IMG/VR virus record: IMGVR_UViG_2537561935_000012
Strand: one strand, 5' to 3'
Source: a virus
Taxonomy: Duplodnaviria; Heunggongvirae; Uroviricota; Caudoviricetes
Length of the DNA stretch: 64,000 bases
Program-made: the position numbers and the translations under genes
The notes under the pieces: model-generated
The model's input: only the letters and a program-made list of their open reading frames with translations
Told to the model about the DNA's origin: nothing
The model's database searches: none
Shown: positions 14,353-64,000 of the stretch, in pieces
How the letters are laid out: each line of letters starts with the position of its first letter
Numbering within the stretch: the stretch's first letter is position 1

Positions 14353-15615
14353 TCAGCGAACGTAAATAGTTCCGCCGTTCTCTTTTTCCCATGCATCGCT
14401 ACGTGCATAGCAAACATCGAGAAGTCTTCTTGCCGCTGTTTCCTCTAAACCCAATTCGACAACCAACTGCTCATGACGGCGGGTAACCACATCAAACAGG
14501 GTATGCAGCCCTTTAGCTGCCAGCTCATCAATAAATTCCGGTTCGAACGGCAGCTCTGCCTCTGCCAACATAACCTCTTGCGCCCACTCAACTCGACGGA
14601 CCAGTTCCGGGCGGCGGCTTTCCATCTCTTTACAGATCAATTCATGGAAGAACTCTACCCAACCTTCCGGCTGGAACTCGCGGAAAATGGCCAACGGCTG
14701 GAAGTTTGGCATCAACCATTCGTTGATCCGGATATCAATGGCATAGCCCATGTCGCAGCAGAACTGATAAGCAAAGTCCAGCTTAGAAACGATATAAGGA
14801 CGCTCGTTATTGAACTCTTTAGGCGATGAGATCCCATAAGCCAGGAGGCGCGGGAAGAAGGAGATTTGCCCTAACGTCGGATGAAGTTTGCTTGCAGGGA
14901 AACGGCGCTCAGTAATGCCATACATTTCCTTCTTGAGCGTCGCAAATTTGGCATTCTCATTAACCAGCGCGGTAACCTCTGCTTTTTTATTAGCAAATGC
15001 CACGCGCGCCTCGCTTGCATCTTTAATAGTTTTTTTGAGCTGTTGGTTAAGGTCGGCGACCTGCTTACGCAGTTCCTGTCGCTCGCTTTTAGCTTTGTTA
15101 TAGCGTTTCTCAAGGTTAAAAGGATCAAGTTTCATGATCTCTTTATATTGAGATTTTAGCGTTGAAATCTGTGAGTTCCGCAGTTCAACCATCGCGGTCA
15201 TTTCATTGAGTTTTGTTTCCAGCTCAATGCTTATACGTTCGGCATTATCAGCACGCTGGTTGGCGTCATGCGTCGCATCGTCGATCGCGTCCTGTTGCTG
15301 GCGTTTCAAATGTTCAATTTCCAGCTGAAGCTCTTCAATTTCTTTACCCTTCAGACCGAGATCCAACTGCATATTTTCAGCTGCATCTACCAGGGAGTTA
15401 TGGCTATCAGCTTCTGCGTTATAAACATCAATAAGCTGTGCGTGAAGCATCTCCGCTGACTGAACCGCATTATCAAAAAAACGCGCTGTGAGGTCATCAC
15501 AACTAACGCGGCGTTGCGCGGCCCGGATGTTCTGGATAATGGCCGGGATACCGGCATTCAGGACGTCAGGGATAGATACATTTTCGATTGATTGGTTTTG
15601 TGCTGAAGTGCTCAT
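14353..15615 (-). CDS. hypothetical protein, coiled-coil N-terminal half
   Basis: 420 aa; Cys/aromatic-rich C-terminal domain. Confidence 0.55.
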   Translation of the reverse strand: MSTSAQNQSIENVSIPDVLNAGIPAIIQNIRAAQRRVSCDDLTARFFDNAVQSAEMLHAQLIDVYNAEADSHNSLVDAAENMQLDLGLKGKEIEELQLEIEHLKRQQQDAIDDATHDANQRADNAERISIELETKLNEMTAMVELRNSQISTLKSQYKEIMKLDPFNLEKRYNKAKSERQELRKQVADLNQQLKKTIKDASEARVAFANKKAEVTALVNENAKFATLKKEMYGITERRFPASKLHPTLGQISFFPRLLAYGISSPKEFNNERPYIVSKLDFAYQFCCDMGYAIDIRINEWLMPNFQPLAIFREFQPEGWVEFFHELICKEMESRRPELVRRVEWAQEVMLAEAELPFEPEFIDELAAKGLHTLFDVVTRRHEQLVVELGLEETAARRLLDVCYARSDAWEKENGGTIYVR

Positions 15616-27058: not shown

Positions 27059-27134
27059 TGGTGGCCCCTACCGGACTTGAACCGGTGACCGTGCGATTAT
27101 GAGTCGCCAGCTCTAACCACTGAGCTAAAGGGCC
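27059..27134 (-). tRNA. tRNA-Ile2/Met-like, anticodon CAU
   Basis: 76-nt cloverleaf; loop CTCATAA; GGTTCAAGTCC T-arm; encoded CCA; close to E. coli ileX. Confidence 0.85.
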
Positions 27135-28565: not shown

Positions 28566-28641
28566 TGGTGCCGATTAACGGACTCGAACCGCTGACATCC
28601 TGCTTACAAGGCAGGCGCTCTACCAACTGAGCTAAACCGGC
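28566..28641 (-). tRNA. tRNA-Thr, anticodon UGU
   Basis: 76 nt; D-arm GCTCAGTTGGTAGAGC; loop CTTGTAA; encoded CCA. Confidence 0.85.
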
Positions 28642-28643
28642 AT

Positions 28644-28719
28644 TGGCGATGGTGGATGGATTTGAACCATCGACCCGTTGATTAACAGTCAACCGCTCTA
28701 ACCGCTGAGCTACACCATC
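28644..28719 (-). tRNA. tRNA-Asn, anticodon GUU
   Basis: 76 nt; loop CTGTTAA; T-arm GGTTCAAATCC; encoded CCA; 2 nt from tRNA-Thr. Confidence 0.85.
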
Positions 28720-44729: not shown

Positions 44730-44885
44730 TTACCTTTCAGATTCGTAGGCTGTGAAGACAGTGACCTCCGTCTGGCCGGTTCGGATTCGTACCTCGCAGA
44801 GGTCTTTCCTCGTTACCAGTGCCGTCACAATGACGGTTAAACAGATGACGATCAGAGCGATTAACATCGCTTTTTGCTGCTTCAT
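44730..44885 (-). CDS. hok: Hok/Gef-family type I toxin
   Basis: 51 aa, MKQQKAMLIALIVICLTVIVTALVTRKDLCEVRIRTGQTEVTVFTAYESER; matches Hok pattern ..TRK.LCE.R.R.G..EV..F.AYES; below track size cutoff. Confidence 0.7.
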   Translation of the reverse strand: MKQQKAMLIALIVICLTVIVTALVTRKDLCEVRIRTGQTEVTVFTAYESER

Positions 44886-44943
44886 AGCCTGCTTCTCCTT
44901 GACCTTTTGGTCGGTAAGAGGCTAATCTACGTATGCTAAGCAT
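44737..44943 (-). CDS. mok: Mok-like overlapping reading frame
   Basis: 68-aa ORF that starts upstream of and overlaps hok in another frame. Confidence 0.45.
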   Translation of the reverse strand: MLSIRRLASYRPKGQGEAGYEAAKSDVNRSDRHLFNRHCDGTGNEERPLRGTNPNRPDGGHCLHSLRI

Positions 44944-45066
44944 AGATATGGCCTCAGATTAATGTTAAGCGTCTTGCAGGACGCGTAATGTTATCTGGGG
45001 CTTTCTTCTATCTGCTTTTCGGGTAATGCCTGAAGCAGATAGCCTCAAGCACCCGCAACGATTGTA

Positions 45067-48479: not shown

Positions 48480-48640
48480 CGTAAGTTGATAAACAACCTG
48501 CGACCCGCTGCTAAACAGGTGGCAGGACGTGACGGGGTTAGCAGACTGGCACTTACGAAACCAGCAGGCCGAAGCCTCCCCATCACGCCCCACCATAATT
48601 CGGGCGTAACGTGGTTTACGGACACAAAAATACCGCAATA
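48480..48640 (-). ncRNA. c4: c4 antisense repressor RNA region (approximate)
   Basis: GC-rich hairpins between the operator and icd; boundaries not resolved. Confidence 0.3.
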
Positions 48641-48780
48641 TCGGAAATCTGCGGTTGTCCGCGTAAGTATTCAGGCTGCTAAACCCGGTCGCAGAATTTG
48701 CTACGACGGCGGAACTATAAGCCTGAACGATTAAAAGGTCAATATGATGCGAAAAGATAGCATTCGCGACTTAAAAATAC

Positions 48781-59386: not shown

Positions 59387-59405
59387 AAGTTACTTATCTT
59401 ACAAT
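59387..59405 (+). promoter_or_regulatory. candidate late promoter of the tail-fibre operon
   Basis: AAGTTACTT-atct-TACAAT about 30 nt before the ATG at 59436. Confidence 0.45.
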
Positions 59406-59435: not shown

Positions 59436-59870
59436 ATGTCTGACGTCTCAACAAACCTCTATAAGAGTCAGTTGTTGGACTATTACTATCAGCGGCGCGC
59501 TGAATCGTCCATTAACAAAGGCTCTCGATTTTTAATCAGCAAGGCCGTTTTCGGTACCAGTTCGCTGGTTACTAAGAAAGGAGATGGCACTTATGAGATT
59601 GGAGAACTGCCAAAGGCTTTCGAACTGGCAGAACTGACCAGTCAATTTTGCACCATCAACCTCGTCCCAACCTACTCAGGCGGGATAATTACTGTCCGAA
59701 TGGACCTTGATCAAAGCCAGTTGCAGGAAGGGAAAAACTACCCATTCAACACTCTGGTTGTTCTGGATAACGAGAACAAGCCAATCGCCATTATTTGTGT
59801 CCAGGAAGACTCGCTGTATGTGGGCAAAACATATACCGCAGTTATGGCCATAAACACGACTACAGCATAA
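59436..59870 (+). CDS. R: tail-fibre-associated protein R
   Basis: 144-aa ORF immediately upstream of S. Confidence 0.5.
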   Translation: MSDVSTNLYKSQLLDYYYQRRAESSINKGSRFLISKAVFGTSSLVTKKGDGTYEIGELPKAFELAELTSQFCTINLVPTYSGGIITVRMDLDQSQLQEGKNYPFNTLVVLDNENKPIAIICVQEDSLYVGKTYTAVMAINTTTA

Positions 59871-59881
59871 GGATATGCTTG

Positions 59882-62800
59882 ATGAATGACGTTACAGTTG
59901 TTACATCGGTTACTTACCCATCATCCGAGTCGTTGGCTCTGGTGGCCGATGTGCAATACCACGAACCATATCTGTCAGCCGCGCTAAACCGAAAATTCAG
60001 GGGGATTGTTGACCCGGGATTTTATGCCGGTTTCTTACCTAAGCCTGGCGGTGGGATGAACCTGTTAATTACCTCAGTGGATGGTGATAAAACCGCAGGC
60101 GCGGCGTCGGTGGATATTGGTGAATTTTACCAGGTAACTATTCAGCAACGTAAGGATATTTCTCTTGCACTTAGTGCAGGCAAGAAATATGCAATTGTGC
60201 TGAAGGGAAGATACCTCCTTGGAGAAGATACCTACCAGGTGAATACCGCGTCACATATTCATGCGGCTGAATTTGTTGCCAGAACCTATACCGATTCATA
60301 TCAGTTAGGAGATGGGGAGCTGCTTGTTTGTACGGTGAATATCCCTGCTAGTGTATCTGCCATTACCCAGGAGATGATTGATACATCCGAGCGTATCAAC
60401 CGCTCGATCGGCATTGATATTTCAGACTCTGTAACCAGTACCAGAAGTGATGTTGCTGCAAGTTCGCTGGCAGTTAAAAAAGCCTACGATCTGGCGAAAA
60501 GCAAGTATACGGCACAGGATGCAAGCACAACGCAAAAGGGATTAGTTCAGCTCAGTAGCGCAACTAACAGCGACAGCGAAACAATGGCGGCTACCCCTAA
60601 AGCTGTTAAGTCTATAAAAGATCTGGCTGATACCAAAGCGCCAATAGAAAGCCCGAGTCTGACAGGAACGCCAACCGCGCCGACGGCAGCGCAAGGTACA
60701 AATAGCACGCAGATCGCAAATACAGCCTTTGTTAAGGCAGCTATAACGGCACTTATCAACGGTGCACCTGGCACACTGGATACGCTTAAAGAAATAGCTG
60801 CTGCGATCAATAACGACCCGAATTTCAGCACAACTATCAACAATGCTCTGGCTCTTAAAGCTCCTTTAGCAAGTCCTGCATTAACGGGAATACCTACTGC
60901 GCCTACCGCTGCACAGGGTACGAATAACACGCAGATCGCAAATACAGCCTTTGTTAAGGCAGCTATAACTGCACTTATCAACGGTGCGCCTGGCACACTG
61001 GATACGCTTAAAGAAATAGCTGCTGCGATCAATAACGACCCGAATTACAGCACAACTATCAACAATGCCTTGGCTCTCAAAGCGCCTTTGGCAAGCCCTG
61101 CATTAACGGGTGTCCCTACTGCGCCTACCGCTGCACAGGGTACGAATAACACGCAGATTGCTACGACCGCTTATGTAAGAGCTGCCATATCCGCATTGGT
61201 TGGTTCATCACCAGAAGCTCTTGATACCCTGAATGAGCTTGCCGCAGCACTTGGCAATGACCCGAACTTTGCGACAACAATGACAAATGCGCTGGCAGGC
61301 AAACAGCCTCTGGATGCAACTTTAACCGCTCTCGCTGCCCTTGCGACTGGTGCAAACAAACTGCCTTATTTCACTGGTAAGGATACGGTAGCTCAGACTG
61401 ATTTAACGTCAGTCGGTCGCGATATTCTGGCTAAAACAAGCACACTGGCCGTTATCCAATACCTTGGTTTAAGAGAACTCGGTACCAGCGGTGAAAAGAT
61501 CCCCCTGTTGAGCACGGCTAACACATGGAGGGCGCGCCAGACTTTCAACGGCGGGATCACCGGGGCACTGACAGGGAACGCCGACACCGCGACGAAATTG
61601 AAAACAGCCATAAACATTAATGGCGTCAGGTTCGATGGTTCTGGTGACATTAATATCAATACTCTGGTATCGCGCGGTCGCGTAACGGCCTTGGAGGCGA
61701 ATGCACAGGGAACATCTGGGATTCAGCTGTATGAGGCATACAACAATGGCTACCCTTCCCCCTATGGCAATGTGCTTCACCTTAAAGGTGCCACCGCTGC
61801 TGGCGAAGGTGAGTTATTCATTGGCTGGAGTGGCACGAGCGGTGCCCATGCGCCCGTACATATCCGTTCGCGACGGGATACTGATTCTGCCAACTGGTCT
61901 GAATGGGCGCAGGTCTATACGTCAAAAGATTCAATTCCCGGCGTCAATGCCAAAGGGGATCAGGATACCTCCGGCAATGCTGCTACGGCGACCAGATTGC
62001 AGACGGCGCGCACTATTAACGGTGTTTCGTTTGATGGTTCTAAAAATATTGAGCTAACGGCTGAAAATTTAAATCTTGAGCAAACCGTAGAACTAGCCGC
62101 TGGATCATTGCAGAAAAACCAGAATGGCGCGGATATTCCTGGAAAAGATACCTTCACTAAAAATATTGGTGCATGTCGCGCTTTTCACAGTTCTATTAGT
62201 ACAGGTGCAGGGAACTGGACAACGGCACAATTGATTGAATGGCTGGATTCTCAAGGGGCATTCAATCACCCATACTGGATGTGCAAATGTTCATGGTCGT
62301 ACGGCAATAATAAAATTATAACCGATACTGGCTGTGGAACTATTCATCTTGCAGGTTGCGTTATTGAGGTTATGGGTAATAAAGGTGCCATGACCATCCG
62401 TGTAACAACACCAAGCACTTCCACCGGAGGTGGCACCACTAATGCGCAATTTACTTATATAAACCATGGTGCAGATTACGCCCCAGGCTGGCGGCGCGAC
62501 TACAGCACAAAAAACCAGCAACCTGCATTTGCTTTAGGGCAGACAGGAAGCACAGTTGGAAATGACAAAGCTGTTGGATGGAACTCGATTAGCGGGGTTT
62601 ATAACGCTAATATTGGTGGAGCATCTACGTTGATTCTCCATTTTTATATGGGAGCTGGTAGTTGTCCGGCTGTTCAGTTCCGCGTGAATTATAAGAACGG
62701 CGGTATTTATTATCGTTCTGCGCGTGACGGTTATGGTTTTGAAGCCGACTGGTCGGAATTTTATACTACAACACGTAAACCATCTGCGGGAGATGTTGGG

Positions 62801-63022
62801 GCATATACCAAAGCAGAATGTAATTCACGATTTATTACAGGTATTCGATTAGGTACAAAATCGTCTGTGCAAACATGGAATGGTCCTGGATGGAACGATA
62901 AATCTGGTTATGTTGTTACTGCCTCAATTAACTCAAATAAGGACGAACTTATTGATACAACTCAGGCAAGGCCGGTGCAGTATTGTATCAATGGTACATG
63001 GTATAACGCGGGAAGTATTTAA
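59882..63022 (+). CDS. S: tail fibre protein S
   Basis: about 1046 aa from ATG after AGGA RBS; three 74-aa tandem repeats; cix site inside. Confidence 0.85.
60650..61320 (+). repeat. three tandem 222-bp repeats inside S
   Basis: [17 protein letters not shown]...KAPLAS repeated; first two copies near-identical at DNA level. Confidence 0.85.
61452..61477. other. cix: cix-type inversion crossover site (cixL-like)
   Basis: ttatccaataccttggtttaagagaa, 26-bp imperfect dyad, 12-bp half-sites around a central 2 bp. Confidence 0.6.
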
Positions 63023-63024
63023 TT

Positions 63025-63558
63025 ATGCAGCATTTAAAAAACATCAGATCAGGTAATCCAAAAACTGTTGAACAATATGAATTGACGCGACAATTTGGTG
63101 TTGTCTGGTTGTATTCTGAAGACGGTAAAAACTGGTATGAGGAACAAAAGAACTTCCAGGATGACACTATAAAAATTGCTTACACATCAGATGGAGTTAT
63201 TGTGGCTATAAATAAAGACGTATCTACAATAAATCCAGAAGGTTTAAGTGTGGTTGAGGTTGCTGACATTACTGCAAATCGCCGTGCTGACATTTCTGGT
63301 AAATGGATGTTCAAAGATGGCGTAGTGATAAAGCGAACTTATACCGAGGAAGAACAGAGGCAACAAGCTGAAAATGAAAAGCAAAGCCTATTGCAACTTG
63401 TCAGGGATAAAACCCAACTGTGGGACTCACAGCTACGGCTGGGCATCATTTCCGATGAGAATAAACAGAAATTAACCGCGTGGATGCTATATGCGCAGAA
63501 AGTAGAATCTACAGATACCTCCATCCTGCCAGTAACGTTTCCCGAACAACCAGAATGA
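63025..63558 (+). CDS. U: tail fibre assembly protein U
   Basis: 177 aa directly after S. Confidence 0.85.
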
Positions 63559-63560
63559 GA

Positions 63561-63580
63561 AAAGGCCCGTTATCGGGCCT
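63561..63580. terminator. bidirectional terminator hairpin between U and U'
   Basis: aaggcccgttatcgggcctt with T-runs on both sides. Confidence 0.6.
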
Positions 63581-63585
63581 TATTT

Positions 63586-64000
63586 TTACTCAGGTTTTTG
63601 TGGCCATTCTGGCTTTGCCGTATCCACGCGGCTTACAAGAACGCTGTAGCGTTCCCATGCTTCCAGTCGGCTGTGGTCCTCATCCGTTGCCATATTCAGC
63701 CTTACTGCACGCTCTAGTAGTTGAATGACTGATTCAGCATCAGCAAGAAGTCTGGCTTTCTGATTTTCTACCTGCTGCTGTAATTCCTCTTCCGTATAAA
63801 TACGTTTAATAACTGCGCCATCCTTAAACATCCAGTTACCAGAAATGTCGGCACGTCGGTTAGCAGTAATATCCGGCACTTCAACAACACTTAATCCATC
63901 CGGTCTGATAGCTGTTACATCCTTTTCCACATAGCGGATGATGTTATCTTTGTCATACGCTAATTTTATCGTGTCATCCTGGAAGTTCTTTTGTTCCTCA
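63586..64000 (-). CDS. U': alternative tail fibre assembly protein U', 5'-partial
   Basis: convergent paralog of U ([33 protein letters not shown]); N-terminus beyond the window. Confidence 0.7.

Follow-up and report, generated by a model that had tools for sequence, protein, structure and literature searches.

Since the early 1980s, the Cin/cix C-segment of phage P1 has served as a textbook case of how programmed inversion of DNA switches the host range of a phage. In P1, the recombinase Cin inverts the segment and the host range switches with it (PMC6906374, PMC10999674), and the dependence of this inversion on Cin has been established (Iida et al. 1982, as cited in PMC6906374). The S fiber of P1 binds the LPS outer core, and the S' fiber binds O-antigen (PMC13172314). 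The order of elements in P1 is LPs-R-Sc-cixR-(Sv-U / U'-Sv')-cixL-cin-lydC (AF234172; Iida et al. 1982; Lobocka et al. 2004), and phage P7 (AF503408) has the same architecture. The G-segment of phage Mu (Gin/gix) follows the same principle: Sc stays constant, and Sv-U behind it is exchanged for Sv'-U' by a serine invertase from the Hin/Gin/Cin/Pin group. In plasmid p15B, a P1-related plasmid prophage, a Cin-like invertase shuffles the 3' ends of the tail-fiber gene by the Min multiple-inversion system, which was reportedly described by Sandmeier and colleagues in 1992. There are six crossover sites in p15B and several invertible segments. The P1 record notes 96% identity between the Sc region of P1 and p15B.

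Here we describe a tail-fiber locus at the right end of a viral contig, analyzed over a stretch of 64,000 nucleotides that we refer to as the window. We are highly confident that this locus comprises the constant part of S and, following it, the right-hand 2.5 kb of a Cin/cix invertible C-segment belonging to a P1-family phage-plasmid. For the annotation of P1 and P7 we relied on the GenBank records and on papers that cite the primary work. By its gene content and order, the window as a whole is a P1-like phage-plasmid (Punavirus). It is collinear genome-wide with P1 and P7, with agreement in the order sit-pmgA-bplA-16-R-S-U, P1-like plasmids match positions 1-25000 at 97-99%, and it encodes the C4 antisense RNA with its a1b1 targets as well as three tRNAs.

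The tail-fiber operon and its crossover site

Table 1. Features of the tail-fiber locus, in window coordinates.
Feature	Position	Strand	Basis
Late promoter LPs of the R-S-U operon	59387..59405	+	Exact 19-nt match to annotated P1 LPs
Gene R, 144 aa, tail-fiber structure or assembly	59436..59870	+	ORF; Pfam Phage_P1_tail_fiber_R
Tail-fiber gene S as assembled (Sc + Sv), 1046 aa	59882..63022	+	ORF; Pfam
Sc, constant N-terminal part of S, 527 aa	59882..61464	+	Homology to P1 Sc
Three tandem 222-nt (74-aa) units, 'b' repeated elements of P1	60635..61300	+	TRF
cixR, 26-bp Cin crossover site	61452..61477		Identity to P1/P7 cixR; central TT at 61464-61465
Window part of the invertible C-segment, 2536 of 4550 bp	61465..64000		Comparison with relatives
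Inner inverted-repeat arm, 188 bp, common start of Sv/Sv'	61465..61652		Match to the far segment end
Sv, variable C-terminal part fused to Sc, 519 aa; P1 Sv' type	61465..63022	+	Homology
U, tail-fiber assembly chaperone of the putatively expressed cassette, 177 aa; P1 U' type	63025..63558	+	Caudo_TAP
Bidirectional terminator hairpin between the convergent chaperone genes	63562..63581		Terminator-like on both strands
U', chaperone of the putatively silent cassette, P1 U type, 3' 137 codons	63586..64000	-	ORF; cut by the contig end

The features of the locus are listed in Table 1. The match to LPs covers the -22 box and the -10 and lies at the same distance upstream of R as in P1, and R itself is collinear with the annotated gpR of P1 and P7. 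S carries the Pfam domains Phage_fiber_2 (E = 5.6e-30) and gp37_C (aa 886-981), and near-identical plasmids carry the same S CDS annotation. Over aa 1-403 its constant part has 94.5% amino acid identity to P1 Sc; beyond that point one additional 74-aa unit shifts the alignment, and the constant part ends at the cix crossover as annotated in P1 and P7. The extra unit belongs to a tandem array with a period of 222 and 92% matches (repeat family D1). P1 b1 and b2 have their counterparts in units 1 and 3, respectively, and unit 2 resembles b2 at its 5' end and b1 in its body; unequal crossing-over between b1 and b2 appears to have produced the extra unit. The window has three copies of the 74-aa repeat where P1 and P7 have two, and some relatives have four, which supports the suggestion of the initial annotation that the repeats could vary in copy number.

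The initial annotation had also placed a 26-bp cix-like dyad within S, just after the repeats and at the junction of the constant and variable parts. The sequence of this site, TTATCCAATACCTTGGTTTAAGAGAA, shares 26/26 bases with the annotated cixR of both P1 and P7, and it was found once in the window when up to 3 mismatches were allowed, against an expectation of 0.00 from shuffled sequences. It is an imperfect dyad, with 8/12 half-site positions symmetric about the central TT, and it is located within the S ORF 152 nt past the third repeat unit, where similarity to P1 Sc stops and the variable part starts. Read in the frame of S, it encodes ..IQYLGLRE.., and the crossover falls in codon 528.

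The variable part that follows is 93.6% identical in amino acids to P1 Sv' over 518 aa, and its match to P1 Sv is limited to the first 218 aa. U is a Caudo_TAP protein (E = 6.5e-36) with 83.6% identity to P1 U' and 60% to P1 U. Among the P7 proteins, Sv is 82.6% identical to the window Sv and Ua/Ub are 84.7% identical to the window U. The 3' half of Sv and U have 79% nucleotide identity to S'/U' of Mu in its G(-) orientation, and the same value holds for positions 62106-63903 against Mu S'-U'-U. By homology, then, the cassette joined to Sc is of the P1 Sv'/U' type, and the element is therefore captured in what would be a P1 C(-)-like state.

Convergent with U is the truncated U' gene, and the two products share 56% identity across the 137 aa of U' present in the window (E = 3e-52; 56-59% is the overall range). 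The full-length U' in plasmid CP063732.1 has 175 aa, is likewise a Caudo_TAP protein (E = 6.8e-34), and shares 77% identity with P1 U. The gene anatomy given in the initial annotation, with S, U and a convergent paralogous U', stands, and it is only the naming relative to P1 that shifts: the annotated S end and U correspond to P1 Sv'/U', and the annotated U' is of the P1 U type. Between the two genes there is a hairpin, AAGGCCCG-TTAT-CGGGCCTT, already described in that annotation as bidirectional, with free energies of -20.4 and -18.0 kcal/mol on the two strands (z = -4.7 and -4.4). Its stem is kept in P1, P7 and plasmid NZ_CP074369.1.

The segment past the window end and its two orientations

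We found no second cix site in the 64-kb window, either when the exact site was searched with up to 3 mismatches allowed or with a relaxed core pattern, and no cin-like gene in the same 64 kb by tblastn with Cin. This agrees with the earlier expectation that the window contains neither the second crossover site nor the alternative S' end nor the recombinase. The source contig, AQCL01000073.1 of assembly GCA_000354615.2, retrieved through an exact match to the S protein, and the window share the same end, inside U', at an exact 30-nt inverted repeat between U and U', and this stop is an assembly break and not biology. We also considered whether the contig end could be a sign of mixed orientations and rejected this, as such heterogeneity would break an assembly at the cix site and inverted repeat and not in U'.

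Two plasmids, CP063732.1 and NZ_CP030784.2, differ from window positions 59800-64000 at 3/4201 bases and continue past the window end through U', a 632-aa alternative S end, cixL and cin, so the partner site and recombinase that the initial annotation proposed to look for downstream are found there. The segment in both plasmids measures 4550 bp from the center of cixR to the center of cixL, and the 188-nt arm at its left end is 97.9% identical to the reverse complement of the other end in CP063732.1. The cixL sequence, TTCTCTTAAACCAAGGTTTAGGATTG (15203-15228 in CP063732.1, and also present in NZ_CP074369.1), is the same as P1 cixL; the 4 positions that distinguish it from cixR are in the outer half-site. 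Cin of CP063732.1 has 186 aa with Resolvase (E = 5.7e-51) and HTH_7 (E = 2.6e-18) domains, keeps the YVRVS serine motif, and is identical to P1 Cin at 184/186 aa (98.9%). The stop codon of cin falls within cixL, and the counterpart of the annotated P1 enhancer is identical at 70/72 nt. The silent cassette in these relatives is a mosaic with a P2-like tip and not P1 Sv.

Because the contig ends in U', the presence of cixL, the silent Sv' and cin in this genome rests on its relatives, and we think that the genome probably still has cixL and cin. The locus could instead be a frozen relic in which cin or cixL has been deleted, truncated or mutated, leaving the fiber locked in the S' type and the cix site as a coding remnant; both elements would lie past the end of the sequence, and lost or crippled switches are documented in some P1-like plasmids (PMC6906374). 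One such plasmid may be NZ_CP021729.1, in which a different assembly gene and a serine acetyltransferase come after S. No recombinase is annotated in that stretch and no cix-type site was found there, and the layout resembles the replacement described for phage JL22 (PMC9603915). However, the 3' 137 codons of U' in the window are intact and agree with intact relatives, the closest relatives that we examined have a complete U'-Sv'-cixL-cin, and a contig break at an exact 30-nt inverted repeat is typical of short-read assembly and is not a deletion end. On balance we regard a frozen locus as quite improbable here and favor a complete C-segment that continues past the window.

That the segment is invertible, as the initial annotation had proposed, is borne out by plasmid NZ_CP074369.1, which holds the 4550-bp segment in the opposite orientation with 2 mismatches, next to a left flank that differs at 1/3000 bases. 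Window positions 61465-64000 compared to the reverse complement of that segment have 5 mismatches in 2536, and the protein accessions of U and U' in NZ_CP074369.1 are the same as those in NZ_CP030784.2. When we inverted the segment of CP063732.1 in silico, the result was an uninterrupted S' of 1159 aa, and NZ_CP074369.1 encodes a 1159-aa S as this inversion predicts. The reading frame survives inversion because the two ends of the segment resemble each other in their inner half-sites and in the first 188 bp further inward. The flipped Sc-Sv' junction occurs in nine plasmid records, and in at least 20 records the silent Sv' adjoins the recombinase on the other strand, which is the unflipped arrangement. 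Since a near-identical segment is present in both orientations among plasmids, both orientations occur in nature, as represented in public records.

Alternatively, RecA-dependent homologous recombination between the 188-bp inverted repeats, and not Cin at cix, could be the main route of inversion. The segment arms are identical over the first 102 nt inside the segment, so the exchange in NZ_CP074369.1 can be placed only within ~106 bp of identical sequence, with the cix core at the outer edge, and the flipped relative taken alone is compatible with this route. In addition, the arms of NZ_CP074369.1 have been homogenized at positions 103 and 136, which means that homology-driven exchange or conversion between arms does occur. 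A single homologous crossover (positions 136-178) as the origin of NZ_CP074369.1 was rejected, as it predicts A and G at left-arm positions 103 and 136 and we observed G and A. Against homology as the main route, both sites are base-for-base P1 cix sites, they adjoin a Cin 98.9% identical to that of P1 and a conserved enhancer, and C inversion in P1 itself depends on Cin, as noted above. We therefore give this route hardly any credence and retain Cin-mediated inversion at cix. A multi-site shufflon like that of p15B was rejected, since CP063732.1, NZ_CP030784.2 and NZ_CP074369.1 have exactly two sites each; unlike p15B, this is therefore a simple two-state switch.

Proposed switch and comparison with P1, P7 and Mu

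Based on these observations and by analogy with P1, we propose the following model. The R-S-U late operon would be transcribed from LPs and end at the hairpin between the chaperone genes, with Sc joined in frame at cixR to whichever variable cassette faces it, and each cassette would supply its own chaperone, U or U'. Cin, a serine invertase predicted to be encoded directly outside the far end of the segment, with its stop codon inside cixL, would pair cixR with cixL, aided by an enhancer that lies within the 5' part of cin and is bound by FIS, cut the central 2 bp, rotate the ends and rejoin them, thereby inverting 4550 bp. One orientation, that of the window, would produce the 1046-aa S and the other the 1159-aa S' with a different receptor-binding tip, and a lysogen population would therefore release virions with two host ranges. 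In the state captured here, the S'/U'-type cassette of P1 would be expressed, which in P1 is the O-antigen binder. Catalysis by Cin, the requirement for FIS, and the receptor specificity of the fibers at this locus are presumed from P1.

With the parts beyond the window taken from the relatives, the locus has the gene order of P1, from LPs to lydC: cixR, cixL and LPs are identical, the hairpin, Cin and the enhancer are conserved to the extent given above, and one cassette matches P1 Sv'/U' at 93.6% for the S end and 83.6% for the chaperone. There are also differences. The element was caught in the orientation equivalent to P1 C(-), its segment is 4550 bp compared to 4256 bp in P1, and the inverted repeats are 188 bp, whereas those of P1 are 625 bp at 98.6% identity. 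The other cassette has a 632-aa mosaic end, in contrast to the K-12 LPS-core fiber encoded by P1 Sv. The inverted repeats of P7 are also short (~190 bp), but P7 differs in that its U is split into Ua and Ub and its Sv' has 447 aa, unlike the 632-aa cassette that is silent here. Mu differs in its phage family, Sc part, gix sites and recombinase gene.

Known biology, record annotation and host range

The Cin/cix switch at this locus is already known biology, and near-identical copies of the locus are already in public plasmid records. What the comparison adds is a specific reading, as Sc/Sv, U, U', Sv' and Cin, of the generic labels in these records ('tail fiber protein' and 'recombinase family protein'). 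This segment and its internal inverted repeats break short-read assemblies, and the orientation in a finished record is a mere snapshot of a mixed population.

The number of 'b' repeats, 2, 3 or 4 in elements that are nearly identical in other respects, could be a second, slower, homology-driven layer of fiber variation beside the Cin switch, one that tunes shaft length and might co-vary with the cassette pair. We offer this as a tentative idea and consider it rather doubtful. If it were true, shaft length would fit the surface layer that the tip must reach through, e.g., the thickness of O-antigen or capsule, and the cassette pair possibly co-varying with the repeats here would be the S'-type tip and the mosaic P2-like tip, not the K-12 core-binding tip of P1.

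The element probably lacks the K-12 LPS-core fiber of P1, and it probably transduces a different range of hosts than laboratory P1 does. The fibers it is predicted to carry, an S'-type fiber (the O-antigen binder in P1) and a mosaic with a P2-like tip, bear on the prediction of its host range.

The crossover site in S and its surroundings

We found the cixR-type site TTATCCAATACCTTGGTTTAAGAGAA, one of the two Cin crossover sites, once in the window at up to three mismatches; shuffled sequences are expected to have none. By the P1 annotation the crossover falls between the two central bases, here 61464/61465 in codon 528 of S, and 61452-61477 encodes ..IQYLGLRE.. in the S frame. The site lies 152 nt after the tandem repeats, in agreement with the initial annotation of a cix-like 26-bp dyad inside S just past them.

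Features of the tail-fibre region and of other modules in the window
Feature	Position	Strand	Description
hok/sok-type toxin-antisense module	44730-45054	-	between bplB and repL; Rfam sok 114.9 bits (44880-45054); 51-aa Hok-like ORF (44730-44885); overlapping 68-aa mok-like ORF
Phage tRNA genes (ARAGORN)	27059-27134, 28566-28641, 28644-28719	-	Met/CAU, Thr/UGU, Asn/GUU
P1 immunity (ImmI) C4 RNA and a1b1 targets	48515-48600 and 48668-48720	-	Rfam
Late promoter LPs	59387-59405		exact match to 19-nt P1 LPs
R		+	144 aa
Tail-fibre gene S		+	1046 aa
Three tandem 222-nt units	60635-61300		'repeated elements b' of the P1 annotation
cixR-type site TTATCCAATACCTTGGTTTAAGAGAA	61452-61477		26/26 bases identical to the site at the annotated cixR of P1 (AF234172) and P7 (AF503408)
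U	63025-63558	+	177 aa, Caudo_TAP protein
Hairpin AAGGCCCG-TTAT-CGGGCCTT	63562-63581		T-runs after the stem on both strands
U'	63586-64000	-	137 codons (3' part) in the window; Caudo_TAP protein

On the + strand, the last 10 kb of the window encode a 1124-aa SLT-domain protein (sit), four baseplate/tail genes, R, the tail-fibre gene and a chaperone gene, the same order as in the P1 and P7 annotation (sit-pmgA-bplA-16-R-S-U-U'). The first 25 kb match P1-like IncY phage-plasmids at 97-99%, and the P1 immunity RNA and three phage tRNA genes are present. The hok/sok-type module is common to several P1-like phages at 99.5%, with 'MokW' annotated in one. We also noted that the S-U-U' region recurs at 99.9% identity in E. 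coli APEC17 (NZ_CP178203.1, 3,535,784-3,539,984), a record labelled as a 5.2-Mb chromosome; this is either a chromosomally integrated P1-like element or a misassembly.

The 74-aa b units number three in the window and in the plasmids CP063732.1 (L001), NZ_CP030784.2 (L002) and NZ_CP074369.1 (L005), two in P1 and P7, and four in NZ_CP021729.1 (L006) and NZ_CP148988.1 (L008), so the suggested copy-number variation in the fibre shaft is supported by comparison among relatives. Among plasmid hits sampled at even spacing, most of the ones that cover the full query are 222 nt shorter than it, indicating two b units in these. The middle unit of the window combines the 5' end of b2 (11 residues) with the body of b1, the hybrid that an unequal crossover of b2 with b1 would be expected to give.

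Downstream of S, U and U' are 56% identical, and the hairpin between them, whose stem is also found in P1 and P7, scores as a terminator both ways (folding against shuffles, z = -4.7 and -4.4), so the convergent paralogs facing each other across a bidirectional hairpin that were first proposed are indeed there.

Partner site, invertase and silent cassette in near-identical plasmids

The second site, alternative S' end and recombinase had been predicted to lie beyond the window, and all are found past the window end in L001 and L002, which differ from window 59800-64000 at 3 of 4201 bases. In both plasmids the rest of U' (175 aa) is followed by a - strand ORF for the alternative S end, then by TTCTCTTAAACCAAGGTTTAGGATTG, identical to P1 cixL, and by the gene of a 186-aa 'recombinase family protein' that has its stop codon within TTCTCTTAAACCAAGGTTTAGGATTG, with lydC and lydA next, as in P1. 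This protein, with its Resolvase and HTH_7 domains, keeps the serine motif and is identical to P1 Cin, a serine invertase, at 184 of 186 aa; the annotated P1 cin inversion enhancer is identical to the relatives' stretch at 70 of 72 nt.

The silent cassette encodes a 632-aa end (Sv'; L001 13319-15215, - strand, outside the window) whose likeness to the other cassettes is limited to the first 65 aa and some short internal repeats. Its last ~170 aa are ~91% identical to P2-like (Peduovirus) fibre tips, and over a longer C-terminal stretch the identity to Mu-like Yersinia phages is ~83%; among phage records, none covering 80% of the 632 aa was found. Such a mosaic reflects the well-known horizontal swapping of fibre tips.

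Both orientations of the segment among relatives

The segment measures 4550 bp from crossover to crossover, and inverting it in silico gives an uninterrupted S' of 1159 aa. Using as probe a 1500-nt chimera in which the constant part of S (Sc) passes at cix into the start of Sv', we found the junction continuous in nine plasmid records, while in at least 20 other records this Sv' adjoins the recombinase on the opposite strand. In L005, the best example among these nine, a 1159-aa S is followed by U' on the + strand and by U on the - strand, and the accessions of these two proteins are those found in L002. Its 4550-bp segment differs from the reverse complement of the L001 segment at two positions, with one differing position in the 3 kb to the left. 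The two positions, L005 12015 and 12048 (L001 segment 103 and 136), are the sole flipped/unflipped differences and fall where the inverted-repeat arms differ; L005 carries the Sv'-arm alleles on both arms, which suggests gene conversion between them. Because the segment ends are identical over their first 102 nt, the comparison maps the exchange only to a ~106-bp interval with the cix core at its outer edge, and not to the central dinucleotide.

That the switch is dead in this genome is very improbable. The contig ends inside U', so the rest of the switch would lie beyond the window, and crippled switches do exist (PMC6906374): L006 (5088-9633) is an apparently frozen form in which another assembly gene and a serine acetyltransferase come after S. 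No recombinase is annotated there, no cix-type site was found, and the layout resembles the JL22 replacement (PMC9603915). Against this, the part of U' inside the window is intact, and the switch is complete in L001 and L002, the closest of the relatives examined. Position 64000 is, moreover, the final base of contig AQCL01000073.1 (GCA_000354615.2, 94,029 bp; exact-protein match of S), and 63971-64000 is the exact reverse complement of 63138-63167 in the 5' part of U (30 nt; wider repeat 45 nt at 91%), so the end looks like a typical short-read assembly break at an inverted repeat within the invertible segment. That inversion proceeds mainly by homologous recombination between the 188-bp arms is less likely still: this route is compatible with the mapping interval and with the homogenised arms of L005, but the L005 allele pattern misfits a single homologous crossover, and the intact set of Cin, cix and enhancer favours the known enzyme.

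Relation to the P1 C-segment and proposed working

In the window we found the site sequence, its in-frame place in S and convergent cassettes each with a chaperone, and in relatives 99.9% identical the partner site, invertase, enhancer and both orientations. The locus is the same system as the P1 and P7 C-segment, and Mu G/Gin works alike. The expressed variable part shares 93.6% identity with P1 Sv' over 518 aa; P1 Sv matches only the first 218 aa of that part and is not the silent cassette. P1 U' is 83.6% identical to the expressed-cassette chaperone and P1 U 77% to the convergent one, and the hairpin orientation agrees with a C(-)-like assignment. Together these identities and the hairpin orientation indicate that the element was sequenced in a state equivalent to P1 C(-). 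The names U and U' in the initial annotation are therefore sound as positions but not as homology, the expressed one being of the P1 U' type. The inverted repeat is 188 bp here, compared with 625 bp in P1 and ~190 bp in P7. Among other relatives, the segment of L008 (7375 and 9230) is far shorter and its inner half-sites are variant (GGTTTGGGAGAA), and in NZ_CP142945.1 (6996 and 9534), which falls in another replicon cluster, the recombinase gene lies on the opposite strand. The Cin/cix switch is already known; the cassette pair and three-unit shaft are minor variants, and a variable region of this sort has been noted before in P1-like phage-plasmids (PMC9603915).

Given the exact LPs, late transcription would read R, then Sc, then whichever cassette faces Sc, and stop at the hairpin. 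By analogy with P1 and the Hin/Gin/Cin/Pin group, Cin together with FIS at the enhancer would pair the inverted cix sites, and Cin would cut the central 2 bp, with rotation and rejoining. The inner half-sites and the next 188 bp (97.9% identical) are alike on both arms, so the reading frame is kept. For P1, the binding targets are the LPS outer core in the case of S and O-antigens in that of S' (PMC13172314), and C(-) phage adsorb to Shigella flexneri and E. coli O3 (PMC10999674). A lysogen population of the present element would yield two kinds of particle that differ in their receptor-binding tip, with a separate chaperone folding each tip, the same two-tip output as described for P1 (PMC6906374, PMC10999674).
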